Shown here piece after piece: positions 3,374 to 64,000 of a stretch of 64,000 bases of DNA. The stretch is taken from the IMG/VR virus record IMGVR_UViG_3300045988_164457, positions 69,216 to 133,215 of that record. One strand, 5' to 3'. Position numbers and translations under genes: made by a program. Source of the DNA: a virus. The notes beneath the pieces were generated by a model. The model had not been told where the DNA came from. It saw only the letters and a list, made by a program, of their open reading frames with translations, and ran no database searches. Position 1 is the stretch's first letter, and the number at the start of each line of letters is the position of its first letter.

Positions 3374-4652
3374 ATATATTTGGCTCTGTCTTATCGAATC
3401 TTACTGTTTGAAACACTGGAAACTGCAAAGAACAACTACCGTCCTTGTTCTTAGTTTCTTCCTTATACTTAACCGTGACTATCTTGCCGATAATTTCATT
3501 AGGGTTATTCCAATAATAGCTTCTTTGTTCATCGGTAAAACCAGAACCAACTTTTACAATGTTGTTTTTATACTCGCAAAGGATTGAGCCAAGAGTATTT
3601 ACGTTCTTACCTGTGCCTTGCTCAATATCAATACACTTTAGGTCACAATCATAAAAACACTTTACTTTGATTAACTCCTTTGTTCTCTTGCACTTGTATG
3701 TTGTATCAAACTGAACCATACAACCTTCCTTATCTGTGCTTTCGGCATATTCAAGCCATTTCTGTATCTGCAAATGGTCTGTACCCTCATACCACATTGG
3801 AACGATTCTAAGATTTTTAATATCGTTGTTCTTTATCTTTTTTGCGATTATATCAGTAAGATACTTCTTACGTTCTCCATATTTTAATAGGCTCTCACCA
3901 GCCATAAACTCATTTTTAGGAAGGCAGTCAAAAATCACATATTCAAGGCAAGACTTATCTATATCTTTACTATTTGCAATTCCTGTACCTATTTGAAAGT
4001 TTTCGCTGTCTGATTTACCGTCTGTATTTTTACGAATAAGTTCACCGTCAAATACAAGGTCAGGAAGATTGAATTTCTGAATATCGGAAATTATATGGTC
4101 AAGACCTGTAAATTCTTTACCTGAACGACTATATAGCCTACCATTATAATAAACACATCTTGTTCCGTTCATTTTTTGACTTATGTAAATATATTCATCA
4201 CCTTTAAGCTTAACCTTATCAATAGGAGTGCCAAGTTGCACATCAAACACAGGAATAAATCCTTTACCATATATACTATTTACTGTCTTAGCATCTATAC
4301 CAAGCTTCAGAGACTTCGTTACAAGCTGTCTATAATATTCCTTATATTCTTCAGGCTGTAAACTGATAAAACCCTGTACAATAGCAATATCTGCATCTTT
4401 TCCCGTGTTATTGGTTTCAAGATAAATCATCAAATCTTGCCAAGTCTGAATTGGAGTTGTATCATACTTAACTGATTTATTAAGCTTTTTGGTGCTGATT
4501 CCTGTTATCACAAACGGATTTAAAAGCCATTTTAATGTATCAGTAAATAAAATGTTTCTTTTATTAACTTTCAGAATTTCAATCTTTTCAGTTTTTTTGC
4601 TTGTTGACTGGAGCTGATTGAATATTTTGAATACGTTAATCATTTCATTCAT
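3372..4652 (-). CDS. ATP-dependent DNA ligase
   Basis: Adenylation motif I-like ISQKMNGTRCV, FDGEL (motif III), EGCMVQF (motif IV) and LIKVK (motif V). 426 aa. Confidence 0.75.
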   Translation of the reverse strand: MNEMINVFKIFNQLQSTSKKTEKIEILKVNKRNILFTDTLKWLLNPFVITGISTKKLNKSVKYDTTPIQTWQDLMIYLETNNTGKDADIAIVQGFISLQPEEYKEYYRQLVTKSLKLGIDAKTVNSIYGKGFIPVFDVQLGTPIDKVKLKGDEYIYISQKMNGTRCVYYNGRLYSRSGKEFTGLDHIISDIQKFNLPDLVFDGELIRKNTDGKSDSENFQIGTGIANSKDIDKSCLEYVIFDCLPKNEFMAGESLLKYGERKKYLTDIIAKKIKNNDIKNLRIVPMWYEGTDHLQIQKWLEYAESTDKEGCMVQFDTTYKCKRTKELIKVKCFYDCDLKCIDIEQGTGKNVNTLGSILCEYKNNIVKVGSGFTDEQRSYYWNNPNEIIGKIVTVKYKEETKNKDGSCSLQFPVFQTVRFDKTEPNI

Positions 4653-5283
4653 TTGTGGAATCTCCTTTCAGTTCTTCATCGTAAACATCAAAATCAAAAA
4701 TAAGATGCTTTCTACTTGCAATATAATCACACAGATGAACACATTTCTGAATGTCTGTTTCGGGAGTAGGAAGTATATCATCTGAATATTTTGATGTATT
4801 CCACTTACCCATATGAGAAGCCACTGCGTCAGAAATTGTCAATACTCTTGTACCAAAATAAAGGTCTAAGGCATTAGTCATACAGTTCATATCATTCTTA
4901 TTAACATATTCTGCGTATTTTTCTAAAATAAAGTATTTCATAAGTATAGGATGATTGAAAACTGTATGATCTTCCCACATACCACACTTTAGCCCATCAT
5001 GAAGAATGAGTGCCGATGTTACAATATCTTTATCGACATCATTGAAATTATAAAAATCTGCCCTAAATAAATCCTGTGCCATTGCAACAGCAGCTTTAGT
5101 GTGTCTGATAAGTCCTCCTTCTCCTATTGTATATGACGGATGATACTTACCACTCGTACTTGCACCAATATGTCTAAAATAATCTGGAAGGTCATCAAGA
5201 ACAAAAGCTGTGAAATCTTTAATTTTACTATCCTTGATAAAACTTAATTCTCTTGTAAAATTTTCTGAATTTGTCATATTCAT
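4645..5283 (-). CDS. HD-domain phosphohydrolase
   Basis: GKYHPS...IRHT and ILHDGLK form an H...HD...D pattern. Confidence 0.7.
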   Translation of the reverse strand: MNMTNSENFTRELSFIKDSKIKDFTAFVLDDLPDYFRHIGASTSGKYHPSYTIGEGGLIRHTKAAVAMAQDLFRADFYNFNDVDKDIVTSALILHDGLKCGMWEDHTVFNHPILMKYFILEKYAEYVNKNDMNCMTNALDLYFGTRVLTISDAVASHMGKWNTSKYSDDILPTPETDIQKCVHLCDYIASRKHLIFDFDVYDEELKGDSTNE

Positions 5284-7556
5284 TCTCCTTCAATTAATAA
5301 ATTATATAACCAAGTTTGACGTGTAAAATTTTCTTTTTTCTTAATTGCTCTACCGAATGTGTTTAAATCACTAAGCAAATAACATCTTTCTTTTGCTCTT
5401 GTAATTGCTACATATAGTAAATTTGAATTAAGCATAAATGTATGTGAATTTGGTGCAAAAACAATAACAATTCTTGCTTGACCACCTTGACTCTTATGAA
5501 TCGAAATTGCATAAGCCAATTTAATGTTGGAAAACTTATCTTTTGGAATATAAATTTTATAATCATCAAAATCAACTATAATGCCATTATAAGTAATGTC
5601 TGAAATAATTCCTATATCTCCATTTGGAATAAGTGTTGTTATATCTTCTTCAGCATTATAATAGTCAGCGTGATTTTCTTGATATATAAATGACTGATAA
5701 TCATTTTTACATTGAATAATAGGATCGCCTATTCTATATTCAACATCTCCAAAAGAAGTTTTCTTTGTAACGTTAGTATTTATCACTGATTGGATTTGAT
5801 TGTTTATTTTTTCTGTACCATAATCACCTTTGTTTTGAGCTACTACAATTAGAATATCCTTTAAGGGAATATTGTTATCTAAGAGTTTTTTATACATTTT
5901 TATAATGTAATCGACTGCTCGTTCAGGTGCAATAGGAATGTAAGTACAGCCTTTATCTTCTCCAACCGTCTGAGTACCTGTTACATTCTGAAAAGTTAAT
6001 TTACTTTCTCTTATATCCGTGGCTACTGTACTCAATCCACCCTTTCCATAACGGAATACTTTTGAAAGCCACACCGTTGGAACAATATTACTATTTAAAA
6101 TATCGTGTAATACATTTCCACAAGATACTGATGGTATTTGAGCATTATCTCCTATGATTAAAAGTTTTGTCCTACTGAAATCAATAGATTCAAGTAAATG
6201 TTTAAATAAAAACACATCTACCATAGAAGTTTCATCAAGAATAACAATATCTTGAGGTAACTTATTCTTTTCATTGTAACACCATTCATTAGGTGGCATA
6301 AATCCTAATCCTCTATGAATAGTGCTTGCCATATGATTGGTATATTTCTGCAATACCTTTGCAGCTCTGCCAGTTGGAGCAAGCAAAATTGCAGTCAAAT
6401 TATTATCATAAAGCATATTCATTAATGCCAATACTGAAAAACTTTTACCACTGCCTGCAAATCCCTGTAAGACAGTTATAGTATTTTCACATACAGATTT
6501 CATAGTTTGCATTTGTTCATCTGTGAGTAACGAATTGTTTATAACACGATATTTCTCTATATCTACATTCCATTTGCGATTAACCTTTAAAGCATTTTTA
6601 AGTGTATCAGCAATATATTTTTCTGTTTCAAATGTATTTGTTTTAGAGATTCTACCCTGTTTCTTATCAAATATTATAGTATCAGATGAATTGATTGCAT
6701 CTGCAAGTTTATCCTTTGCTTCAAGGGCATAAGTCAAACATTCTTTTTGAAACTGTTTGATACTCATATAAGTATTTCCGTTATTTTCATTTTCATCAAG
6801 AACATAAAAGCAACAAGCTTTCATTCTTTCGACAGATGTTAGAAGATCAAATTTAAAATCTATAATTGGCTTCTCTCCATTTTTTACACGTTCTTTAGAT
6901 AATTCATCTATTCGGAGCAAGAGTGCATCTGCTGTTTTAAACCCTATACCTCCTAATTTACATAGACACTCATAAGGTTTAGTATGAAGATTTTCTTTAA
7001 TTTTTTCAATAGATGAATAGGTGTCATATAATTTCTTTATGATAGAAAAACTAAATACTCCTGAAAATTCATCTACTAATTCTGCAAGTTTAAAATTTTC
7101 AATTACCTTTTTCTTTATCTTGGCAAAGGTAACTTCTTTTATGCCTTTAGTTTTATTCAAATCAATATCATTAAGACGATTATTCATTATTCTGTCTATA
7201 ATATCGGGATATACAGCAAGCAGTGTGCTTGCTTGCTGATAAGTTAATATCTCCTGCAAAAAAGCCCTGCTGTTTTCAAGAGTTACTGGCTTTTCGCTTC
7301 TGATATTTATAACTTTATATCCTATACCATATTTATCTTTTTCTTCATCTGCTTTTATGATATATTCACAGTCAAGATTAAGTTCTTGTATATCTCCTTT
7401 TATTGTAACTGTTCCATATTTAGAGACTGCAATATTAGGATATTTAAAACTGTCTATAGTACAACCATAGATTTTAAAATTTTCAGAATTATAAAGACAT
7501 CTTATTGGGATTGCTTTAAATTCTTTTATTTTAGTTAATTTTTCAGAACTTCCCAA
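5280..7556 (-). CDS. RecD-like SF1 helicase
   Basis: Walker A GFAGSGKS, APTGRAAKVL, Walker B ILDETSMVD, IIGDNAQIPSV, SIHKSQGGQ and AITRAKERCYLL. Confidence 0.85.
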   Translation of the reverse strand: MGSSEKLTKIKEFKAIPIRCLYNSENFKIYGCTIDSFKYPNIAVSKYGTVTIKGDIQELNLDCEYIIKADEEKDKYGIGYKVINIRSEKPVTLENSRAFLQEILTYQQASTLLAVYPDIIDRIMNNRLNDIDLNKTKGIKEVTFAKIKKKVIENFKLAELVDEFSGVFSFSIIKKLYDTYSSIEKIKENLHTKPYECLCKLGGIGFKTADALLLRIDELSKERVKNGEKPIIDFKFDLLTSVERMKACCFYVLDENENNGNTYMSIKQFQKECLTYALEAKDKLADAINSSDTIIFDKKQGRISKTNTFETEKYIADTLKNALKVNRKWNVDIEKYRVINNSLLTDEQMQTMKSVCENTITVLQGFAGSGKSFSVLALMNMLYDNNLTAILLAPTGRAAKVLQKYTNHMASTIHRGLGFMPPNEWCYNEKNKLPQDIVILDETSMVDVFLFKHLLESIDFSRTKLLIIGDNAQIPSVSCGNVLHDILNSNIVPTVWLSKVFRYGKGGLSTVATDIRESKLTFQNVTGTQTVGEDKGCTYIPIAPERAVDYIIKMYKKLLDNNIPLKDILIVVAQNKGDYGTEKINNQIQSVINTNVTKKTSFGDVEYRIGDPIIQCKNDYQSFIYQENHADYYNAEEDITTLIPNGDIGIISDITYNGIIVDFDDYKIYIPKDKFSNIKLAYAISIHKSQGGQARIVIVFAPNSHTFMLNSNLLYVAITRAKERCYLLSDLNTFGRAIKKKENFTRQTWLYNLLIEGE

Positions 7557-20417: not shown

Positions 20418-20502
20418 TGGTACTCCCAGACGGATTCCAACCGTCACACCTTTCGGTACTTGATTTTGAGTCAAGCGTGTCTTGCAATTTCACCATAGGA
20501 GC
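20418..20502 (-). tRNA. tRNA-Leu (anticodon CAA), class II with long variable arm
   Basis: Hand-folded cloverleaf of 85 nt with encoded CCA. The T-loop is TTGGAAT and the D-loop lacks GG. Confidence 0.8.
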
Positions 20503-20661
20503 AGATGAGTGCCTGATTATCCTCACAGGCTTTTGGGCGGTTCATTCTAAAGTTTATCCTCATCCGCTAAAACCACAAAGTCGCTATCCGTCTCGTGAAC
20601 TACTCGCCTACTCTTGTTCTACAAACAACCCTAATGTTGCTGTTTTCTCCAATTTCAGATT

Positions 20662-20738
20662 TGGTCTCCCAAGTGGAACTCGAATCCACACTGTCAGAAT
20701 TTTAAGTTCTGTGTCTCTGCCGATTGGACTATTGGGAG
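20662..20738 (-). tRNA. tRNA with anticodon TAA but class I (short variable loop) structure
   Basis: Hand-folded, 77 nt: acceptor CTCCCAA/TTGGGAG, anticodon loop CTTAAAA, T-loop TTCGAGT, A73 and CCA encoded. Confidence 0.7.
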
Positions 20739-20948
20739 ATATTTAAACCACTTAGCAGGTTTTTCATCCGCTCAAAGTCGCTATTTGTTAATATGAAACC
20801 TCATATTCGATTTTTAGTGCCAACAGAATACGACTTGTTATTACTGTTCAGACACTTAATACATATTTAATGAAATATCAGCGCCAACTGATACGACAAA
20901 ATATGTATTAGGTTGGAGACACCTTGACGGTATCAATCCTCGCACCAA

Positions 20949-21022
20949 TGGTACACCATATCGGTTCTGCCCCGATGTTTAACGATTAAAAGTCGTTTGT
21001 TCTACTATTGAACTAATGGTGC
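20949..21022 (-). tRNA. tRNA-Lys (anticodon TTT), non-canonical D and T loops
   Basis: Hand-folded, 74 nt with CCA encoded. The T-loop is GGCAGAA (no TTC) and the D-loop is AATAGTA (no GG). Confidence 0.55.
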
Positions 21023-21093
21023 TTATTCCTGACTTTTTATACGGAAGTCAGTGAAACCGTTTATGGAGGTTATACCAGAATGAAACTAACATT

Positions 21094-21167
21094 TGGTTGG
21101 GACACTCTGATTTGAACAGAGGATCACGGAGTCAAATTCCGATGCCTTACCACTTGGCTATGCCCCA
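21094..21167 (-). tRNA. tRNA-Gln (anticodon TTG)
   Basis: Hand-folded, 74 nt: D-arm GCCAAGTGGTAAGGC, T-loop TTCAAAT, CCA encoded. Confidence 0.85.
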
Positions 21168-28872: not shown

Positions 28873-29019
28873 TATTTAAACCTCCAATTTTAAACTTTGA
28901 AATTGTCTTGAATAATCAAAAGACTTTACTAATCTATTCATCCCTAAATAGAAAACTTTGTAGTACATATGTAATCACTCTTTTTTCACTTAATTATTCA
29001 AAACAATTTTTGACCGCTC

Positions 29020-29048
29020 TTGACAAATTCAAAAACATATGTTATGAT
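29020..29048 (+). promoter_or_regulatory. module M1 rightward promoter
   Basis: TTGACA-17-TATGAT with upstream TG. Confidence 0.65.
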
Positions 29049-29093
29049 ATAAAACTAAGGTTTTATTTTACTTTATTGGTTGACCTTGGTATA

Positions 29094-32710: not shown

Positions 32711-33319
32711 ATGATTAAATGCAATTTAAAATCTCTAAGATTTAACCATAATGACATATCTCAAAAAGAGTTATCCCAGAGCGTAAATATTAGAACACAA
32801 ACAATCTCTGATATGGAAATGGGGAAAACTAAATCTTACTCAGTTGAAAATTTGAATAAGTTATGCAACTATTTCAAATGCGACATATCAGATATCATTA
32901 GCTATGTTCCTGATGCACCAAACATCGTCTGCACATCTCATAGAATAACGTCAATACCTATCTCAGTAGTTGCAGCTGGTGCTGGTATATCCACTAAATT
33001 TACAATAGATAATTCATTTGAGAAGAAGGAATTTCCATCTGATGTTGTTCCCTCTAATGCTGATTGCGGTATTCGTATCAATGGTGACTCAATGTCCCCT
33101 GATTACCCCGATGGCTGTATTGTTTGGGTAAAACAAACCACTGAGGTCAAATATGGAGATGAGGTAATTGTCATTCTTAACGGTTCCCCCTATTTCAAAA
33201 TATACGAGAGAGACGGTCTTCAATCAATCAATCCTGATTATCCGGTTATAAAGATTTATGATGATGACAAAATCTCTGTATTTGGTAAAGTTATAGGAGC
33301 TTGTACTGACAACATCTAA
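32711..33319 (+). CDS. LexA/CI-like repressor (XRE HTH plus S24 self-cleaving peptidase)
   Basis: HTH ISQKELSQSVNIRTQTISDME, the catalytic Ser motif GDSMSP and a downstream Lys in YFKIY. Confidence 0.8.
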   Translation: MIKCNLKSLRFNHNDISQKELSQSVNIRTQTISDMEMGKTKSYSVENLNKLCNYFKCDISDIISYVPDAPNIVCTSHRITSIPISVVAAGAGISTKFTIDNSFEKKEFPSDVVPSNADCGIRINGDSMSPDYPDGCIVWVKQTTEVKYGDEVIVILNGSPYFKIYERDGLQSINPDYPVIKIYDDDKISVFGKVIGACTDNI

Positions 33320-33422
33320 TAATATGTATTAAACTGCAAAGAAATATTACGGCTGAATATGTATTTGATGTTTAACACCACCTTCCTCATATACAAGTAA
33401 TTATCAAATTCTTTTACCTTTT

Positions 33423-33462
33423 CCCTATTGCGTTTATGTTGATGCAATAGGGATTTTCTTTG
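33423..33462 (+). terminator. intrinsic terminator
   Basis: ccctattgc...gcaataggg followed by attttctttg. Confidence 0.65.
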
Positions 33463-33494
33463 TTGTAAAACTTTTAAGGCAGTAAATTCTAAAT

Positions 33495-33523
33495 TTGACA
33501 TTTCTCGTAATATGTGTTATAAT
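33495..33523 (+). promoter_or_regulatory. module M3 rightward promoter
   Basis: TTGACA-17-TATAAT with TGt extension. Confidence 0.65.
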
Positions 33524-33568
33524 GTAATACTAAGATTTTTTCTTTTATGTAATTCTTAGTATGGTTAT

Positions 33569-33597
33569 ATTATAGTACATTATTCTGTACTTGTCAA
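33569..33597 (-). promoter_or_regulatory. module M3 leftward promoter
   Basis: Reverse complement reads TTGACA-17-TATAAT. Confidence 0.6.
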
Positions 33598-33656
33598 GAC
33601 AAATGGTAAAATATTCAAAACTTTGTTGAATTTACACTATTTCAGGAGGGTATTTT

Positions 33657-34058
33657 ATGGGGTTTTATACAAATTTTGAAGAAATCTGTACCCAAAGACA
33701 TACATCCGTTAGTGCCGTATTGCTAAAATGTGGACTTACCAAAAGCCTTGGCACTGGTTGGAAAAAAGGTGTTTCCCCAAGTGGAGATAATATTATTAAA
33801 ATAGCTCAATATCTTAATGTATCAACTGATTATCTTTTAATGGATAAAGCAACAGTAGACAGCCTTTCCCACATTGAACAAGAACTAATCAATTCTTTTC
33901 GTAAGCTTTCGCCTAATGAACAGCAACGCATAATCGGGAGATGCGAGGAAATAGCTTCGTCAAAATCGACCGAAGATAATGCAGAACCTGAAATTATCGA
34001 GATTGCTGCGAGAAGTAAAAAAGGAAATACACCAAAGATTTCTACAGATGAGTTTTGA
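33657..34058 (+). CDS. XRE-family HTH protein (controller-protein candidate for the downstream R-M gene)
   Basis: HTH VSAVLLKCGLTKSLGTGWKKG. Its stop lies 9 nt before the R-M gene. Confidence 0.7.
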   Translation: MGFYTNFEEICTQRHTSVSAVLLKCGLTKSLGTGWKKGVSPSGDNIIKIAQYLNVSTDYLLMDKATVDSLSHIEQELINSFRKLSPNEQQRIIGRCEEIASSKSTEDNAEPEIIEIAARSKKGNTPKISTDEF

Positions 34059-36433: not shown

Positions 36434-36452
36434 TGTTTTCCACAAAGTCCTC

Positions 36453-36481
36453 TTGACAATTTTAAAGTTATTTTGTATAAT
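36453..36481 (+). promoter_or_regulatory. sigmaA-type promoter
   Basis: TTGACA-17-TATAAT. Confidence 0.7.
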
Positions 36482-36553
36482 ATAAACAAGCACTACACAT
36501 ACAAATCACAAAACATAAACAAAGCCAGATTTAACAAAAAAGGAGCTGATTTT

Positions 36554-36715
36554 ATGAGACGTTACCCACCACCAAGAAGTACACAACCTATCGTTGACAG
36601 TGCAGGATTATCCGTTATACTAACGATTATTACTGTATGTTGTCCACCATTAGGATTGGTCGCATACATTTTAGCAGGTATCTGTGAAGAGATCGGATTA
36701 AAGATAGGAAAATAG
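36554..36715 (+). CDS. 53-aa membrane peptide
   Basis: AAAGGAG RBS 7 nt before the ATG. Hydrophobic core LSVILTIITVCCPPLGLVAYILAGI. Confidence 0.45.
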   Translation: MRRYPPPRSTQPIVDSAGLSVILTIITVCCPPLGLVAYILAGICEEIGLKIGK

Positions 36716-36773
36716 GTTTAAAATCAGTAGTAAAAATACTATCAAATTTTTCTATAAATTTCCACAAAACCTC

Positions 36774-36802
36774 TTGACAAATCAGAATTAATCTGCTACA
36801 AT
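36774..36802 (+). promoter_or_regulatory. sigmaA-type promoter of the NYN cassette
   Basis: TTGACA-17-TACAAT. Confidence 0.7.
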
Positions 36803-36884
36803 ATAATTGTGAAATACAAGATATCTTGTATTATTTAACGCAAATTGAATTATTTAGATGTCCCTCATGTTGAGGAATGCGCGA

Positions 36885-37964: not shown

Positions 37965-38103
37965 GTATTTTCTCATAAAAAATTTATTGTTTTATAAATC
38001 GGTGTACTATATAGTGTCATTTCTCAAACAACCAAAAATAAATGATTAAGCATTCTTCAAATCATCAAATAAGAATTTTGTTCTACTTTTTTCGACAATT
38101 CTC

Positions 38104-38132
38104 TTGACATTTCTTAAATCATTTTGTATAAT
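38104..38132 (+). promoter_or_regulatory. sigmaA-type promoter of the HD-GHKL gene
   Basis: TTGACA-17-TATAAT. Confidence 0.7.
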
Positions 38133-38258
38133 GTAAGCAAGTAATATATCTGATTTACCACATTGAATATTACATTTTGGTTCTACTAATTTAAACATAG
38201 TATGATAAGTATGTACAAAGTACAAATTAGTGACTATTATTTTACGGAGGAAAAAATT

Positions 38259-41200
38259 ATGGGACAATTTAATATGCAATTTACATTAGAGGAGCATTTT
38301 AAAAACTTAAGCGAATCCTATGAACAAGTTACTGATGTATACTGCCTTTGGAACTTATTAAAAAAAGACATTTCTGAAAAGCTTATAAATACATATCGTA
38401 ATTACCCTTATTTCAGTAAACATGATGCCTCACATTCAAAAACAATAATAACTAATATTGAACTTTTCTTAGGTAAGGAAAGGATACAAGCACTTTCAGC
38501 AACAGATACAATTATGTTGCTTATTTGTGCATATATGCACGATTACGGTATGGCATTAGATTTAGAAGAAATATTCAGCATTCTTAATGATTCAGAAGAT
38601 AAATTTAAAAATTTTTTAAAAGACAAAAAAAATGAAAATATTTACGCTAAACGAATATTAGACTATTATAACAAAGAAAAGTCCGATGGTAATTTAAAAG
38701 AATTATATTATTCAATATTAATTATGCTTCAAGATTTAAACAGACCATATCATTGGGTAGGTGTCGAAAAAATACGACATGATTACGAATGCTTGTTTGC
38801 AAAAAGAATTAAAGTGAGATTCGTCACAGCAATAATTGATATTTGTCAGATGCACGGTAAAAATGTGGAGGCAATTTCCACGTTAAGCCGTCGATCAAAT
38901 GGTATGTTTGCCGATGTTTTTCATCCTAGATTTATTGCTGCTATGATTCGTTTAGGTGATTTATTAGATTTAGACAATCATAGATTTAGTCAAGAATTTG
39001 AACGTGCTATGCAAAAAAACGATAATTTAATACCAGAGTTATCAAAAATTCATTATTTAAAGCATGAATCTATAACTAACTTTTTAATAACTCCAGAATA
39101 TATCGATATAGAAGCAATATGTAATGGAAATGATGCTTTAGCATTATCTGTCGCAAGAGAAATATATGATTGGTTACACTGGTTAGAAAATGACTGTATA
39201 TATTTAAAACAAGAATGGGATATGATTGCACAAAAAGATTTTGGAACTTCGCCTAAAATAAGAAATAAAAAAATTTTAGTAAACGGTATGGAATATCACC
39301 ATTTTGTATATAACTTAAGAATGGAACTTCCAAGTGATAGAATTTTTGAACTTCTTATCGGAAGTAATGTTTATGAGAATAAATATGTAGCATTTCGAGA
39401 AATTATTCAAAACGCCATTGATGCAACCTTATTGCAAATATGGGAAAATTTTTATAATAATTTACCACCTAATACTTTAAAAAGCTCATATTCATCAAAG
39501 TTAGCAGAGTATTGTTTATCATCAAATTTTGATAATGAATATAAAATACAAGTAAATGTAATTGAAAACATTAAAGAAAATGCTGTTTACGTTGAAGTAA
39601 TCGATAATGGAATTGGAATAGGTGATGAGGATTTACAATACATGTGTAGAATAGGAGAAAATAATATATGCAATCCTCAACGTCATAAATTCATAGACCA
39701 GATGCCAGATTGGTTTATTCCATCAGGCGTGTTTGGTATTGGATTACAAAGTGCCTTTCAATTAACAAATGAAATAGAATTTTTCACCAAAAAAGCTAAC
39801 AGAACTCCACGACATATACGCTTCTCTTCTTATTCTAGCAACCAAGGAAAAATTGAGGTTTCAAAATGCCCAAATTCATATTTAGAACAGTTTAATAAAT
39901 TATCGACACAAGGCACTTTAGTAAGATTAAAAATTAATCCTAAATTTTTTAGAAAGAACAAAGATTTTGATTATTTTGATTTAGCGTTTGAAAACGAAAA
40001 GCTTAACAGTCATGTCATATTTGTTGAAATCATTTATCAATTAAAAAAATATATAGAAACACAAAAAATTAATTATATGCCCATATTTTTTTCGAATTAT
40101 ATTATAGAAGATACAACTAATATTTCAAAGAAAGAAAAAATGAAACGTATAAGTAAAGATGAAAGCTTTTATTATGTTATGAATATGACTGAAACTGGTC
40201 AAAAAATAAAGTTGACCAAAAAGAATGATTTTATAATTTTAAATTATTGGAACAATGATAAAAATATTTTTTTAGAGGTGCAAATTCCTAAATGCAACAT
40301 TTTGAACCCCTCAGATGCAAAGAAAATTCTATTTTCATTACAATTTCTTGATAATGCTTTTTTAATTAAATACAAGCATAATATTATAAATAATTATGAG
40401 CAATTATTTGGATATCGTTCTAGTCAAACTGATACTCAAGTATATGATTTAAACAATAATATAATAAGATGTTTAGTTAATATTTTTGATAAGAACCCCG
40501 AAAATTATTTAAACATTGACAGAAATGTTTTAAAATATGGGAAAATAACTTATTCTGATATAGCAACTTGTGAGGAAGAAATGTTTTCCTTATTTTGCAG
40601 TAAGGTTTCCGAAAAAAAACTATTGGACGGTAAAAAGGCTTTTATTTCAAAAAATGATTATCTCCCGATTTTATCTATTTTATTTTTTCGATTTGCACGA
40701 AAGAAAGCTCTCAAATCATTTATTTTAAAATATGGCAAAGATTTACAAAATTATGAGATATCACTTAATAATGATGGTATATCTTATAATATACAATTAC
40801 AAAAAATTTTAGGTATAGAAAATAACAATTTTTTTGTTTATGATATTGTTGAAAGCAAATATGAATCTTTTTTTAATGTTGAAGATGTTAAAAATTTTGA
40901 GGAATCTCAAATAAAGCCAATTTATGTATCAGATCTATATAATTATTTCCCACGTCACTTTTTTATACCTGTTAAAATTACTATTCAAAAATACAATTCA
41001 AAATTATGTATAATTTATGAATGCCAAATAAGAATGAATACAAATCAAAATAATGAACAGTGTTTTATTGACATTGATGAAAATTATTGGAAACTAGATT
41101 GCATTAGTTTTAGCAATGCTAATAAAAGTTCCTCAAATAAAACTGTTTTAAAGCCAATATCTAAATATAAATGTTTAATTACAAAGTCATTTCCAAAACC

Positions 41201-41516
41201 ATTTTATAAAAGTACTATGTTTAGAAACGTGTTAGATCAAAACATTTCTACGTATATTATTTTCCCTTTAGAACAAAATTTAACACATCAATTATATAAA
41301 TGTAAAGAATGCAACTCAGAAAATGATTTAAAAACCATCTTAAAAGAAATAAACAATAGTATGGTCAAAGATCCTTACTTTAAAAAGTGTTTGAATTATG
41401 TTAGAAAGAATTCTTGTCAACCAAATACAACTGATGAACTTATTATAAATGATTACAAACAATTAATTCTTGATATCGGAAACGAATTTTTTTGTTTAAA
41501 TAACAAAAAGCAATAA
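38259..41516 (+). CDS. 1085-aa HD-domain plus GHKL (Hsp90/MORC/sacsin-like Bergerat) ATPase protein with ~500-aa uncharacterised C-terminal region
   Basis: HD: KHDASHSK, YMHDYGM, RLGDLLDLD. GHKL: N-box FREIIQNAIDA, G1 VIDNGIGIGDEDL, G2 SGVFGIGLQSAF. Start at the ATG 8 nt after GGAGG; the ORF track starts at 38202. Confidence 0.75.
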   Translation: MGQFNMQFTLEEHFKNLSESYEQVTDVYCLWNLLKKDISEKLINTYRNYPYFSKHDASHSKTIITNIELFLGKERIQALSATDTIMLLICAYMHDYGMALDLEEIFSILNDSEDKFKNFLKDKKNENIYAKRILDYYNKEKSDGNLKELYYSILIMLQDLNRPYHWVGVEKIRHDYECLFAKRIKVRFVTAIIDICQMHGKNVEAISTLSRRSNGMFADVFHPRFIAAMIRLGDLLDLDNHRFSQEFERAMQKNDNLIPELSKIHYLKHESITNFLITPEYIDIEAICNGNDALALSVAREIYDWLHWLENDCIYLKQEWDMIAQKDFGTSPKIRNKKILVNGMEYHHFVYNLRMELPSDRIFELLIGSNVYENKYVAFREIIQNAIDATLLQIWENFYNNLPPNTLKSSYSSKLAEYCLSSNFDNEYKIQVNVIENIKENAVYVEVIDNGIGIGDEDLQYMCRIGENNICNPQRHKFIDQMPDWFIPSGVFGIGLQSAFQLTNEIEFFTKKANRTPRHIRFSSYSSNQGKIEVSKCPNSYLEQFNKLSTQGTLVRLKINPKFFRKNKDFDYFDLAFENEKLNSHVIFVEIIYQLKKYIETQKINYMPIFFSNYIIEDTTNISKKEKMKRISKDESFYYVMNMTETGQKIKLTKKNDFIILNYWNNDKNIFLEVQIPKCNILNPSDAKKILFSLQFLDNAFLIKYKHNIINNYEQLFGYRSSQTDTQVYDLNNNIIRCLVNIFDKNPENYLNIDRNVLKYGKITYSDIATCEEEMFSLFCSKVSEKKLLDGKKAFISKNDYLPILSILFFRFARKKALKSFILKYGKDLQNYEISLNNDGISYNIQLQKILGIENNNFFVYDIVESKYESFFNVEDVKNFEESQIKPIYVSDLYNYFPRHFFIPVKITIQKYNSKLCIIYECQIRMNTNQNNEQCFIDIDENYWKLDCISFSNANKSSSNKTVLKPISKYKCLITKSFPKPFYKSTMFRNVLDQNISTYIIFPLEQNLTHQLYKCKECNSENDLKTILKEINNSMVKDPYFKKCLNYVRKNSCQPNTTDELIINDYKQLILDIGNEFFCLNNKKQ

Positions 41517-41771
41517 TTTTTATTTGAAGCCAAACCATATAAAAGATTAAAAATTACTATCAAATAATGAATATTCCGTTTATATGGTTTGGCTATTTTG
41601 ATTTCAAAAAAACAATGATTTTGCTTTAATTTAAGAAATAAGTATATTTAAATAGAACAGTTTGTCCATCGAATTTTTTAGCATTTTTATTCCATTTAGA
41701 CAACCCATATCTCATTAATTACCACTTATATATTTCTTTTAATCACTCAAACTATCTTTGGGTGATTATTT

Positions 41772-42311
41772 TTGTCTTATAATAATTATAAAAATGCGAG
41801 AGATGCTGCTTGGCGCTGTCTTATTGATTGTGGTATATCATTTCTTCCAACCAAGCTATCGGTAATATGTCATCATTACAATGTTGATATTATAAAAAAT
41901 TCCGACTTATCTGATCATGTAATGCGGTTATCTCAGGGTCAGAGAGGAAAGCTTATTTTTTCCAAAGGCAAGCATTATATCATTGTTGATGATTCTGAGA
42001 CGCATCAGGCGCAACGTTACACCATTGCTCATGAGCTGGGTCATTTGATTATTCCGACAAGTGATGAATATGAGGCTGAACGCTTTGCTATTGGCATTTT
42101 AGCGCCTGCTTGCGTTTTATGGGGCTGCAACATTCATTCCGCTGAAGACATTGCTATGATATGCAACATATCTCAGGCTTCTTCTATGATACGTGCTGAA
42201 CGCATGGAAACGCTCTATAAAAGAAACAAGTTTTTAACTTCTCCGTTGGAACGGCAAGTTTTTGACAAATTTTCCGAATTTATAAAGTCTATTTCTTCCG
42301 AAAAACATTAG
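41772..42311 (+). CDS. ImmA/IrrE-type (COG2856) zinc metallopeptidase
   Basis: HEXXH in YTIAHELGHLI plus downstream EAERFA. TTG start 7 nt after GGGTGA. No HTH domain fused. Confidence 0.7.
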   Translation: MSYNNYKNARDAAWRCLIDCGISFLPTKLSVICHHYNVDIIKNSDLSDHVMRLSQGQRGKLIFSKGKHYIIVDDSETHQAQRYTIAHELGHLIIPTSDEYEAERFAIGILAPACVLWGCNIHSAEDIAMICNISQASSMIRAERMETLYKRNKFLTSPLERQVFDKFSEFIKSISSEKH

Positions 42312-42468
42312 CCTTTTACTCATGATGACATTTTTATTGGTAAAAATCCAAAAAATTTCCGCTTAGATTTGGGTAATAAAAAAGGACGTCTGAAACAAAC
42401 ATCCTTTTAGCATCTTTTTTATATTCCTTTTTTGTGCAGAAAAATCTATAAAAATACAGACTTTTCTC

Positions 42469-42497
42469 TTGACAAATTTGCGTATATACTGTATAAT
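42469..42497 (+). promoter_or_regulatory. promoter of candidate antitoxin sRNA
   Basis: TTGACA-17-TATAAT. Confidence 0.7.
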
Positions 42498-42503
42498 AAT
42501 AAA

Positions 42504-42600
42504 TGTAGGGAACACATTGGATAGACGATAGTTCCCGACGAATTAATGATTTTAAGTGTTAATAATCCGCCTAACTGGTACTTAGGCGGATTACTTCTTT
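42504..42600 (+). ncRNA. candidate ~95-nt sRNA (type I antitoxin-like)
   Basis: Runs from a consensus promoter to an intrinsic terminator with no ORF. Internal hairpin gggaac...gttccc. Confidence 0.45.
42564..42592. terminator. bidirectional terminator shared by convergent transcripts
   Basis: aatccgcctaa-ctggtac-ttaggcggatt. Confidence 0.75.
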
Positions 42601-42680
42601 ATACGACTAAAGATAAAATCAACCAGTGTAATAACACAGCTGATAATATTTATAATAGTATCAATAGAAATAATTTCCAC
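42591..42680 (-). CDS. candidate 29-aa hydrophobic toxin peptide (VEIISIDTIINIISCVITLVDFIFSRIKK)
   Basis: Lies after a ~130-nt leader from the 42820-42848 promoter. Its stop abuts the terminator stem. Caveat: the GTG sits only 1 nt after GGAG. Confidence 0.35.
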   Translation of the reverse strand: MEIISIDTIINIISCVITLVDFIFSRIKK

Positions 42681-42819
42681 TCTCCTTTGCAGTTATTCCA
42701 CAAAGGTTTGTGAATTTCGACCTCCTTTCCAACCAATGTGGTGATGGTCGGGAGGTTTACCGCCTACTCTATACGTCCAAACTCTTCAAAACAACGCCAA
42801 TGTATTCCCTACTGCTTGT

Positions 42820-42848
42820 ATTATACCATGCTTTTCCAAATATGTCAA
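42820..42848 (-). promoter_or_regulatory. promoter of candidate toxin mRNA
   Basis: Reverse complement reads TTGACA-17-TATAAT preceded by TGG. Confidence 0.65.
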
Positions 42849-42874
42849 TATATTTATTGTTCCGACAAATAAAA

Positions 42875-42906
42875 ATAATCGTCACCTGATCAAAGATGAC
42901 GATTAT
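42875..42906. terminator. bidirectional terminator
   Basis: ataatcgtc...gacgattat flanked by an A-run and a T-run. Confidence 0.65.
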
Positions 42907-42929
42907 TTTTTATATTTTTTATATTGATA

Positions 42930-43943
42930 TTATTTTCCGAGGAACTCATTGACTGATTTTTCTATAAGTTCTCTTCTTGCCTTTATACTTGAAGGGCTGG
43001 TTGTATGCTCACGGACAAGCGATGCGTATGCTTCAGGCATATTTCCAAAGAACTTTTCCACCCACTTTGCAAACTGCTCGGGTGTATCGAATTTTTCCAG
43101 GTATGGCAGGTATCCGATGAAATGTGTGGGCTTGAACATCAGTTTGATCACGTCTGAATTTTCCTTCTCTATTGACATGTTCTTATATGTTTCAAACATA
43201 AAGTCGTATGATGTTTTAAGCTGTTCCCTTTCGTCTGTGTCGATGCTCAGTACCTTCATGACCTCGTTGACGTGGGCTGGGGTAAGATTTGGCGATTCCT
43301 CAAAGAGAGCTATCCACGATCTAATTATAATTTCCTGCTGTTTGAGTGCTTTTCTTTCCGTTGAGGTAAGCATTACGTTGAACAGCTCGTGGTTAGTAAG
43401 TTCCTTGATATCTTCCATTCCCTGCTTATAGGAACGTGCGATATCGAATTTGCTCATGGATTTTCCGTTATTAAGTCTGCGGAAAATAAGTGATTCCTGC
43501 TCGGGAGTTGCATTTTCCATGATAGAAATATTCAAAGTTGTATCTAATATCCAGCTTTGGAGTTTGGGAGGAAGCTGCTTGAAACGCTTGCCCTGAAGCT
43601 TGACGGGTTCTCCGTTAAGGTATATATCAGGCTCGTTTGTAAGTCCTGTAAGGGCAAAATCTCCGTCTATATAATGGATTATGGTTGTTCCTCTTTGCTT
43701 TCCGTCAAAGATTTTCAGGAGAGTATTTCCGTTGGGGAGTTCCCTTACACCTGCTATAAACGGGGACTGTGCATCGGTAATCTTCAGTAAGATCGAATGA
43801 ATATAGAGGGATTTTCGGGTATTGCTCCACACCTCTCCACGCTGCATATCGTCCGTGAAGTCAACCTCGGGAATATCCTCATAATACATATTATAAAGGG
43901 ATTTAATGCTGATACCTTTTTGGTACATCTTAAATTTATCCAT
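42930..43943 (-). CDS. DUF262 (ParB-fold) protein, stand-alone cassette
   Basis: DFTDDMQRGEVWS and IFDGKQRGTTII. Start at the ATG after AGGAGG; the ORF track starts at 43985. Confidence 0.65.
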   Translation of the reverse strand: MDKFKMYQKGISIKSLYNMYYEDIPEVDFTDDMQRGEVWSNTRKSLYIHSILLKITDAQSPFIAGVRELPNGNTLLKIFDGKQRGTTIIHYIDGDFALTGLTNEPDIYLNGEPVKLQGKRFKQLPPKLQSWILDTTLNISIMENATPEQESLIFRRLNNGKSMSKFDIARSYKQGMEDIKELTNHELFNVMLTSTERKALKQQEIIIRSWIALFEESPNLTPAHVNEVMKVLSIDTDEREQLKTSYDFMFETYKNMSIEKENSDVIKLMFKPTHFIGYLPYLEKFDTPEQFAKWVEKFFGNMPEAYASLVREHTTSPSSIKARRELIEKSVNEFLGK

Positions 43944-62697: not shown

Positions 62698-62771
62698 GGC
62701 GAGTTGGTCTAATGGTAGGATTAGGGTCTCATAAACCTTAGATTTACGTTCAAGTCGTAAGCTCGCACCCA
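62698..62771 (+). tRNA. tRNA with anticodon CAT (Met, fMet or Ile2 identity unresolved)
   Basis: Hand-folded, 74 nt: D-arm GTCTAATGGTAGGAT, anticodon loop CTCATAA, T-loop TTCAAGT, CCA encoded. Position 1-72 is a G-A mismatch. Confidence 0.75.
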
Positions 62772-64000
62772 ATAGTAAAAATCACTGTCAATGAAGGTTT
62801 TTGTAATAACCATCGTGAGTGTACGATTATATTATGGTCAAATTTAATCAGATGCCTCAAATTATGATGATTATAGTTTTTGGCGTTATACATAGCTATG
62901 AGCATTTGTATTAACAATAGTTGACAAAGTGTTTGACCAACACTATTCGTCTGATGACAAGGATAAGAGTAAATGGATATGATGCCTTGTAAAAACTTTA
63001 TTCTAACGTGTGCAATAAACCTATTAAGATTATCCATTCGAGATAGTACGAATAGAATAGACATACTGAAGTAATTGGATTCTGATTTATCAGAATGGGC
63101 GTTTATAAGTATGTTATATGTAAACACAGATTTAATACGTTTGTGTTTACACCAAGTAGGCAGTTCTCGATAATCTGCTGTTAGTAGCTCTGTCTGCGGA
63201 CAACTGAGGTCAAAGTAGATATGCGTATCAAAATGACTAAATCAAATATGAAGTGAAACCAACACTCTTTAAATAAATGGTAAAAACGGAAAATATAAAA
63301 CAATAATAAACTTGTTTGTAAGAAAGATGCTTGCATTTTCCCATTTTCACTACCGTTTGTGAAGTTTATTCGTCCAGTCGAGGGTGGAATGACGTTAAAC
63401 TCTACCCTACCATAATGGTTCTGAGAAAATAATTATCAGAATTATGTTTACAATAACCCCGATGAAAACGGTTGTCAACCTTTCGGGACACGATTATAAT
63501 GAATGTTTATGGAATGATAGTTTTATAAGCAAGTCAACTTTGTATTATGAAAGTATGCAAGATGAGAGGAAAATCCTCAAATTTAGTTGTGGTGCTAAGA
63601 GTTATCGCTTCAAAAAGCACAGAACTTATCGCTGTGGTAATAGACGCTTCTGTGAAGAATAAGCCTTATACTAACGAGTGGAATCGCAAAGTCACTAAGG
63701 TAATCCAAAAGAACACAGTCTGTTTTGATGCTTGAGAAATCAAGCTATAAGGTAAGTCGCTGGTAAAAGTAGCCATATGACAGTATTGGGAACAAATCTT
63801 TTTTTTGTAATGATTTTAAAGAAAATTTCAAATGCTGAATGACTGGTGAAATTTGTGTATAACCAATTACACGCAAGCTTTGAGAGTAATCTACGGTAAG
63901 AAGCTATAGGGTCGCTACCTATAGTTCAGCCTTATCGTCTTGGTGGCTGAATATTGAAGAAGATAATGGAGGTACGGCGAAGGTCGTATTGCAGGCATAA
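62772..64000 (+). ncRNA. candidate large structured non-coding RNA (truncated by window end)
   Basis: More than 1.2 kb without an RBS-supported ORF, visibly more GC-rich than its surroundings. Many local hairpins, e.g. 63079-63096, 63120-63150, 63904-63924 and 63925-63951. Directly downstream of a tRNA. Confidence 0.35.

Follow-up and report, generated by a model that had tools for sequence, protein, structure and literature searches.

We found that two adjacent genes of a phage genome, one encoding a 1085-residue protein that fuses an HD domain to an Hsp90-type GHKL ATPase (HD-GHKL) and the other a 179-residue M78 metallopeptidase, are independent of each other, and that HD-GHKL is a self-promoted single-gene cargo, for which a defence role is somewhat better supported than not. 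The genes occupy 38259..41516 and 41772..42311 on the + strand of the window, a 64-kb stretch (64,000 nucleotides, nt) of the IMG/VR virus record IMGVR_UViG_3300045988_164457 (positions 69,216 to 133,215 of that record); all coordinates below are window positions, and L001-L104 designate the comparison loci. A preliminary description of this DNA had read the two genes as one conflict module, a reading that was tied beforehand to their co-conservation. Across 81 loci and ten phage contigs that co-conservation is absent, and a DNA breakpoint at 41759 and two hairpins lie between the genes. Taken as a whole, the reading that we favour, with two independent genes and HD-GHKL as a one-protein, ATP-gated defence cargo, is in our judgement modestly more probable than its negation.

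The separation of the two genes is most evident when their occurrence is compared between genomes. We scanned all open reading frames (ORFs) of the first 81 loci with phmmer, using the window peptidase as query, and with a hidden Markov model (HMM) of 120 peptidase homologues. The peptidase stands beside HD-GHKL only in L001 and L002, which hold the same element at 99% identity to the window, and the one other match in the 81 loci is weak and falls on an unrelated 385-residue M78 fusion (L031). Beside HD-GHKL homologues of 69, 68, 64, 55 and 49% identity (L003, L082, L004, L084 and L086-L087) the peptidase is absent; L083 stops at the HD-GHKL gene and says nothing about what lies downstream. 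The peptidase is kept, at 60-94% identity, in ten IMG/VR phage contigs (69-146 kb) that have no HD-GHKL within their 7 kb flanks, and most of them also carry the window neighbours GmrSD_N, p64 and p127. A Pfam census of the 148 flanking proteins of 54 loci found M78 in 2 and DUF4231 in 13, with one of the M78 pair being this same element and the other presumably the 385-residue protein of L031.

The boundaries of the cargo can also be read from the DNA. Three related phage loci (L088, L095 and L097) regain 96-98% DNA identity to the window at 41759, a position 13 nt ahead of the start of the peptidase gene, and in HD-GHKL homologues from other contexts the DNA similarity covers the ORF only, from 38255/38264 to 41479/41492. 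On the upstream side, positions 38081-38178, which comprise the promoter and the early leader, are 84% identical to the DNA ahead of a different cargo pair in L104. Because of these breakpoints and the ORF-only similarity, we place the swap slot at approximately 38178-41759, where it holds one gene. Since the two genes are not co-conserved, HD-GHKL is therefore a single-gene cargo with its own promoter. The peptidase is a fixed backbone gene of the phage lineage and lies outside the HD-GHKL unit.

We weighed this against the two-gene conflict module, in which the peptidase would be a signal-responsive switch or an antitoxin of the large protein. Such a module would account for the adjacency of the genes, which share a strand and are separated by 255 nt, for the lack of a promoter-like site ahead of the peptidase (none of ≥9/12 on the + strand of 41516-41772), and for the match of the peptidase to the PADLOC capP model (E 7e-11) and, weakly, to RmrA. 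It does not fit the absence of co-conservation and the rarity of M78 among the flanking proteins (2/148), nor the breakpoint at 41759 and the two terminator-like hairpins that stand between the genes. Furthermore, we detected 2908 homologues in the peptidase family, far beyond what a pairing with HD-GHKL could explain, and in relatives the peptidase adjoins a CI-like repressor. We regard the module as very unlikely and hold the independence of the two genes with high confidence. The preliminary description had proposed cloning this interval (38.1-42.3 kb) in versions that contain or lack the peptidase; on the comparative evidence, the pairing that such constructs would probe is already rejected.

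The promoter of the HD-GHKL gene (TTGACA-N17-TATAAT, 38104-38132, +) is a perfect 12/12 consensus match within an element at 38100..38136 that belongs to a repeated promoter family, and it is followed by a 5' leader of ~120 nt (38139..38258, +) that ends with a GGAGG ribosome-binding site at 38248-38252. The leader folds at chance level (z = +1.14; 177/200 shuffles fold at least as well). The ORF is listed as 38202..41516, and translation from the ATG at 38259, 7 nt past the GGAGG, gives exactly 1085 residues. Promoter, leader and very large ORF had all been recognised correctly in the preliminary description, as had the six motifs quoted there, KHDASHSK, YMHDYGM, RLGDLLDLD, FREIIQNAIDA, VIDNGIGIGDEDL and SGVFGIGLQSAF, each of which is present in the translation. 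Past the stop codon, a long-loop hairpin (41528-41594, +; 16-bp stem, ~35-nt loop, with AUUUUGAUUU next) has a minimum free energy of -23.4 kcal/mol and a z of -4.8, with 0/200 shuffles equally stable, and is a possible leaky terminator. This hairpin had been seen before; a second terminator-like hairpin at 41740-41768 (+; 12-bp stem, 5-nt loop, z = -3.74) had been missed. The TTTTT run that follows it extends to 41773 and overlaps the TTG start of the peptidase, and the junction between cargo and backbone at 41759 falls within its 3' arm.

Next, we investigated the domains of the HD-GHKL protein, using 102 aligned sequences for residue conservation and 21 family members for Pfam. Residues 50-311 (38406..39191, +) form an HD-CE phosphohydrolase domain (PF24391; 115 bits against a cut-off of 27 bits, E 6e-33, model positions 2-259 of 263), which is matched by 21/21 of the members tested. 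Ten of its residues, H55, H59, H94, D95, H165, H199, H222, D234, D237 and D239, are invariant in the alignment, and the AlphaFold2 model of the wider predicted unit (residues 1-345) has a pLDDT (predicted local distance difference test score) of 93.9. Residues 377-551 (39387..39911, +) form a Bergerat-fold ATPase of the Hsp90 type (HATPase_c_3, PF13589; 31.4 bits against a cut-off of 25), with E381, N385, D388, D449, G451, G493, G495 and T553 invariant and motif IV formed by the equally invariant G552 and T553; G453 of Bergerat motif II is invariant only in A1. The protein belongs to the GHKL ATPases, with motifs I (ExxxNxxD), II (DxGxG), III (GxxGxG) and IV (GT) all present. The proposal of an HD and GHKL-ATPase fusion therefore holds by Pfam, with the catalytic residues conserved throughout.

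Searches by profile and by fold, which had been suggested for the separate parts of the protein, were informative for the ATPase. A profile search of the PDB returned Hsp90 N-domains only (3ied, E 3e-10), and alignment of the ATPase with residues 23-154 of E. coli HtpG by hhalign gave a probability of 94% and E 1.4e-7. For residues 1-345 and 555-1085, Foldseek returned nothing significant. The top ranks for the HD model were class I cyclic-nucleotide phosphodiesterases, which are not significant (E 0.098, TM 0.32).

The remaining half of the protein, residues 555-1085 (39921..41513, +), is conserved across the family, with distant members aligning along the whole profile, and its fold is unmatched. 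Its AlphaFold2 model is confident (pLDDT 90.1, predicted TM-score 0.88), the best Foldseek hits being at E 0.36 in the PDB and E 0.13 in BFVD, and no Pfam family was found in this region in the 21 members, in agreement with the earlier remark that no motif could be recognised there. The invariant residues of this half are K706, Y750, R755, P966, P979, P1003 and C1044, of which R755 lies in a near-invariant YLNIDRxxL motif (DNA 40509-40535). The catalytic loop of the Hsp90 middle domain reads LN(L/V)SRExLQ and is followed by a long helix. In the profile of residues 690-800, the catalytic-arginine loop of HtpG (LNVSREILQ, residues 332-360) is the single best local match, at only E 0.24, and in the AlphaFold2 model a long helix comes directly after YLNIDRxxL. 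An hhalign comparison of residues 575-900 with HtpG found nothing. We hypothesise from this motif that YLNIDRxxL may be an Hsp90-like middle-domain catalytic loop. Additionally, ATPase subunits of type II topoisomerases gave weak, repeated matches (E 0.13-2), a transducer-like hint that we do not rely on.

We examined how widely the family is distributed with a profile search of 1.84 billion representatives, clustered at 50% identity, and observed 4427 relatives of HD-GHKL, 2719 of them at E≤1e-10 and 949 at E≤1e-30. Lengths of 950-1200 residues predominate, many distant relatives span the whole profile, and the full-length homologues share 30-71% identity. Genome matches extend across Bacillota, Bacteroidota, Pseudomonadota and Myxococcota, with most members residing in bacterial chromosomes and conjugative elements and not in phages. 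In a scan of viral contigs, relatives reached at most 36% identity and lay on contigs other than those with the peptidase, and searches of phage and plasmid proteins gave few and partial matches, which carry no annotation or the labels 'ATP-binding protein' or 'hypothetical protein'. A megablast of 36-44 kb against deposited phages returned nothing.

When examining the genes next to these homologues, we find a single recurrent partner. A DUF4231/SLATT gene encoding a protein of ~160-300 residues with two transmembrane segments is adjacent to HD-GHKL on the same strand in 15 loci, within a clade of full-length homologues at ~30% identity that is mostly Lachnospiraceae; it lies upstream in eleven (L005, L007-L010, L012-L014, L016, L022 and L028) and downstream in four (L018, L026, L029 and L030). 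SLATT proteins are predicted to be pores that respond to nucleotide signals and co-occur with nucleotide-processing effectors (PMC7159879). SLATT and HD-GHKL form a real two-gene pairing, unlike the peptidase and HD-GHKL. All-against-all clustering of flanking ORFs and the Pfam census of 148 neighbours gave no conserved partner other than SLATT. In the clade of the window (L001-L004) no SLATT gene was found, and this clade does not belong to the SLATT-coupled arrangement; in the gene calls of L082-L087 the sole SLATT_4 gene is that of L082, which lies on the opposite strand together with a SMODS gene. The SLATT HMM was run on the loci, and in the window itself the ORFs flanking HD-GHKL are those of the NYN protein and the peptidase.

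The region into which HD-GHKL has been placed is a defence (superinfection-exclusion) hotspot in related phages, with HD-GHKL as one of several alternative cargoes. Between the repressor genes and the peptidase, L095 and L096 carry a Type III restriction-modification (R-M) system and L097, L098 and L104 a Type IIG one. In the same region, L088 (1-4683, -) encodes a homologue of Tiamat TmtA (PADLOC 3.8e-34; Pfam SACS and NOV_C), an AbiL/AriA-like AAA_15/AAA_21 ATPase and two small unknown genes. In L097, L098 and L104 the slot itself (~4190-6720) holds a gene for a 383-residue protein and a convergent one for a 440-residue DUF4325 protein; L095 and L096 have the 440-residue gene without the other. 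The 383-residue protein has no Pfam or PADLOC match, and the 440-residue protein, which is STAS-like, aligns with the N-terminal portion of the DrmA model of DISARM (1.6e-28); the pair may be another uncharacterised defence candidate. Outside these phages, genes near HD-GHKL homologues include a Metallophos-TIR gene or SMODS with SLATT_4 (L003, L082), PemK and a helicase (L084), and MobL and TraG in a conjugative-element-like stretch (L086). The earlier view of a region rich in R-M and NYN genes agrees with the Type IIG R-M and NYN neighbours, and its idea of a moron belonging to a conflict system stands as regards the defence-gene region and the gene's own promoter; the two-gene module does not.

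On these grounds we propose a working model. HD-GHKL is a single-gene 'moron' with its own consensus promoter, placed among the immunity and defence genes of a large gut phage of temperate type, and would most likely act as a one-protein effector against phages or other mobile elements. Its Hsp90-type GHKL ATPase would serve as an ATP-driven conformational or dimerisation switch, completed by the C-terminal ~530 residues, which would probably also detect the trigger. Once switched, the ATPase would allow the N-terminal HD phosphohydrolase, predicted to be metal-dependent, to hydrolyse nucleic acid or nucleotides, and infection would stop. The general defence role is, on balance, the likelier outcome; the specific ATP-gated HD mechanism, drawn by analogy, is tentative and we would not expect it to hold in full. 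The SLATT pairing and the phosphodiesterase ranking weakly favour nucleotides rather than nucleic acids as the substrate of the HD domain.

Several observations weigh against this interpretation. The defence role is drawn from context, and we found no paper on the HD-GHKL family in the literature. PADLOC gave the large protein no match to any family at E≤1, in line with the earlier failure to name a defence system for it, and PHROGs contained no model. The flanking genes in the 54 genome loci are mostly unrelated to defence and include plainly housekeeping genes, and the raw counts among the 148 neighbours are 4 for integrases and 3 for AbiEii-like ATPases. In the PDB, the HD model had no significant Foldseek neighbour, which bears on the choice between nuclease and nucleotide hydrolase. 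The Hsp90 middle-domain idea consists of one motif at E 0.24, and Foldseek returned no Hsp90 middle domains. As to the independence of the genes, the peptidase, which has no recognisable promoter of its own, may be coupled to some degree to the upstream gene by read-through.

Three further readings were weighed. The HD domain could act on nucleotides and not on nucleic acid, through depletion of the pool or through a signal that it makes or destroys, with the SLATT pore killing the cell in the Lachnospiraceae-dominated clade and nucleotide hydrolysis alone operating in the clade of the window. The adjacent, same-strand SLATT/DUF4231 gene in 15 loci, the nucleotide signals to which SLATT is predicted to respond (PMC7159879) and the first rank of cyclic-nucleotide phosphodiesterases for the HD model all point in this direction, but none of the Foldseek matches reaches significance (E≥0.098, TM≤0.33), a SLATT partner is missing from the clade of the window, and we identified no nucleotide-binding sensor domain; we consider this version rather improbable, if worth keeping in mind. 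A phage-encoded enzyme whose HD fold ranks nearest to cyclic-nucleotide phosphodiesterases might instead serve the phage as counter-defence, for instance by breaking down the signalling nucleotides of host immunity. This sits poorly with a family whose members are mostly in chromosomes and conjugative elements and whose phage matches are weak or partial (≤36% identity), with a suicide-type SLATT pairing in one clade, and with the R-M, Tiamat and AbiL-like defence genes that occupy this region in related phages. To our knowledge, the signal-degrading anti-defence enzymes described so far are small, unlike a 1085-residue ATPase, and we judge counter-defence to be quite unlikely. The resemblance of the GHKL domain to Hsp90 N-domains, its closest relatives, would also suit a housekeeping or stress chaperone, a divergent paralogue of Hsp90/HtpG that carries an HD domain as an accessory. 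A score of 40.5 against the 455-bit HSP90 cut-off, no detectable Hsp90 middle or C-terminal domain, a patchy distribution on mobile elements in variable contexts and the gene's own moron-type promoter inside a phage make this extremely unlikely.

The architecture of HD-GHKL is not represented among named defence systems, and the protein is a member of a recognised Pfam domain family. Its closest counterparts in design are other large single proteins with GHKL modules. VcSduA of Vibrio cholerae, a single-protein anti-phage system, combines an N-terminal GHKL ATPase with a DUF4263 nuclease of the PD-(D/E)xK type, and its defence needs both the ATPase and the nuclease (PMC12137116). Like this paraMORC3-type Shedu protein (type I-D), HD-GHKL is one large protein in which intact GHKL motifs I-IV are joined to a hydrolytic effector and which is carried on mobile DNA. 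It differs in having an N-terminal HD effector, as opposed to a C-terminal DUF4263 nuclease, and a GHKL module of the Hsp90 type (HATPase_c_3) in place of the MORC/MutL type, and the window protein has no match to DUF4263 in Pfam or to Shedu in PADLOC, which places it outside type I-D.

Tiamat is a single-gene defence system whose TmtA protein joins a sacsin/Hsp90-like ATPase to a nuclease-like NOV_C domain. It shares with HD-GHKL an Hsp90/sacsin-like GHKL module within a very large single protein, a TmtA homologue occupies the corresponding region of L088, and 2/21 HD-GHKL family members give weak Pfam SACS matches. HD-GHKL has an HD domain in place of NOV_C and is ~1.1 thousand residues long, as against 1.3-1.8 thousand for the TmtA models. 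It is not a Tiamat member, with no TmtA match at E≤1 and no NOV_C; the same models do detect TmtA in L088. The likeness to Hsp90/HtpG lies in the N-terminal ATPase domain and in YLNIDRxxL, where R755 and the long helix resemble the catalytic loop without reaching significance (E 0.24). Unlike Hsp90, the window protein adds an N-terminal HD domain and has a mobile, patchy distribution. It matches the NCBIfam HSP90 equivalog at 40.5 bits against the 455-bit cut-off, over the N-domain only, and neither Pfam nor Foldseek found a middle or C-terminal Hsp90 domain, so that it falls outside the Hsp90 family.

We then characterised the peptidase. It is a stand-alone ImmA/IrrE-type (M78) metallopeptidase with the active-site motif IAHELGH (41772..42311, +), recognised by Pfam (Peptidase_M78, E 6e-6), PADLOC and PHROG (phrog_1914, E 3e-31), and its size, its lack of a helix-turn-helix (HTH) domain and the absence of an obvious promoter are as first described. 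In related phages without HD-GHKL it keeps its place beside the GmrSD_N gene. In L093/L094 (gap of 58 nt) and in L100-L103 it lies directly 3' of a gene for a 256-residue CI-like repressor with HTH and S24 domains, and in L097-L099 repressor and HTH homologues are found ~6.7 kb upstream of it. The repressor-then-peptidase order looks like the cargo-free arrangement, and we suggest that the ancestral neighbour of the peptidase would have been a CI/XRE-type repressor, in an ImmR/ImmA-like pair, with cargo genes inserted between them later. The CI-like repressor and the 133-residue HTH protein of the window are likely functional partners of the peptidase, which most likely belongs to the phage repressor circuitry in an ImmR/ImmA-like way; this placement, and with it the presumed target of the peptidase, is read from gene order in relatives.

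The comparison with ImmR/ImmA of ICEBs1 and Bacillus phages rests on a stand-alone M78 HEXXH peptidase that adjoins an HTH repressor gene in distant relatives. The window is unlike that system in that 7.7-9 kb, cargo included, separate the peptidase from the repressor genes upstream of it, and in that the repressor has its own S24 self-cleavage domain. CapH/CapP regulators consist of the CapP peptidase and the HTH protein of a neighbouring capH gene, encoded divergently from a defence operon. The window peptidase matches capP over profile positions 6-83 of 242 only and has no adjacent HTH gene, the nearest being at 32711-34058. The RosmerTA antitoxin RmrA is an HTH and M78 fusion of ~370 residues that stands beside the RmrT toxin. 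We ruled out RmrA as the identity of the peptidase, which has 179 residues, no HTH and only partial RmrA matches, none of which extends beyond the HEXXH region (best E 3e-6, residues 63-130). A separate observation concerns L104, where the peptidase gene (7001-7518) is apparently frameshifted, with tblastn pieces covering residues 1-130 and 136-179, and this relative, at least, may be able to do without the peptidase.

The wider setting is a large phage genome, with DNA polymerase, a DnaB-like helicase, an ExoV/Dda-like helicase, an exonuclease and an integrase-like protein encoded in the window. The + strand genes of ~29-42 kb include those for the CI-like repressor, the 133-residue HTH protein, the Type IIG R-M system, the NYN protein, HD-GHKL and the peptidase. 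The cargo region is bounded on its left by the repressor (32711-33319, +; HTH and Peptidase_S24 by Pfam) and the 133-residue HTH protein (33657-34058, +; Pfam). Among the neighbours, the Type IIG R-M gene matches PADLOC REase_MTase_IIG (3e-37) and the NYN gene HEC-09 (3.5e-11), and a GmrSD_N/NsnA-like gene (PADLOC 7e-26) opens the convergent - strand block 3' of the peptidase. The repeated near-consensus promoter element, YCTCTTGACA-N17-TATAAT, is present in six + strand copies over 29-42.5 kb (family D1/D3; 29016-29052, 33495-33527, 36449-36485, 36770-36806, 38100-38136 and 42465-42501), each preceding a gene or cassette of the cargo region. They may serve to express the cargo in the lysogen, and cassette exchange may also use them as recombination points. 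As a class, promoter-like sites are not enriched in this AT-rich stretch, with 38 found against 40 expected from shuffles.

Some further features of the window were recorded alongside. An 80-residue ORF at 36473-36715 (+), which has one of the repeated promoters upstream, encodes a hydrophobic, cysteine-rich C-terminal segment (…LSVILTIITVCCPPLGLVAYILAGICEEIGL…), and its DNA is kept at 93-95% in L088 and L097. The gap at 42311-42930, downstream of the peptidase, is 96-98% conserved among related phages and contains two 12/12 promoters that face each other (+ 42469-42497 and - 42848-42820) and a strong hairpin at 42563-42593. It has no convincing ORF, and an Rfam scan of 41500-42950 gave nothing credible; the gap could encode a small RNA, or else a pair resembling a type I toxin-antitoxin. 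Five tRNAs are present, one at 62699-62767 and four in a cluster at 20421-21167 (-), and the end of the window carries a full-length ROOL RNA (63439-64000, +; Rfam RF03087, 313 bits, model positions 1-574).

Overall, the comparison delimits a cargo region in gut phages of 69-146 kb that is bounded by repressor genes on one side and a fixed peptidase gene on the other, and these repressor and peptidase anchors can be used for mining further unknown defence genes. It is conceivable, though we put it below an even chance by some distance, that HD-CE-Hsp90-like proteins are widespread, unnamed single-protein immune effectors, in which a genuine Hsp90-style split ATPase, made up of the N-domain and a catalytic-arginine loop like that of the middle domain, senses and switches, perhaps with a phage protein as its 'client', and licenses the HD domain, joined by a SLATT pore in one clade. 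If HD-GHKL is indeed a defence gene, a large family absent from PADLOC would join the GHKL-gated one-protein effectors such as VcSduA-type Shedu and Tiamat, from which it would differ by its HD effector chemistry and by ~530 residues of a confidently predicted, unmatched fold, and it would provide a second test of Hsp90-type ATPases as bacterial immune switches.

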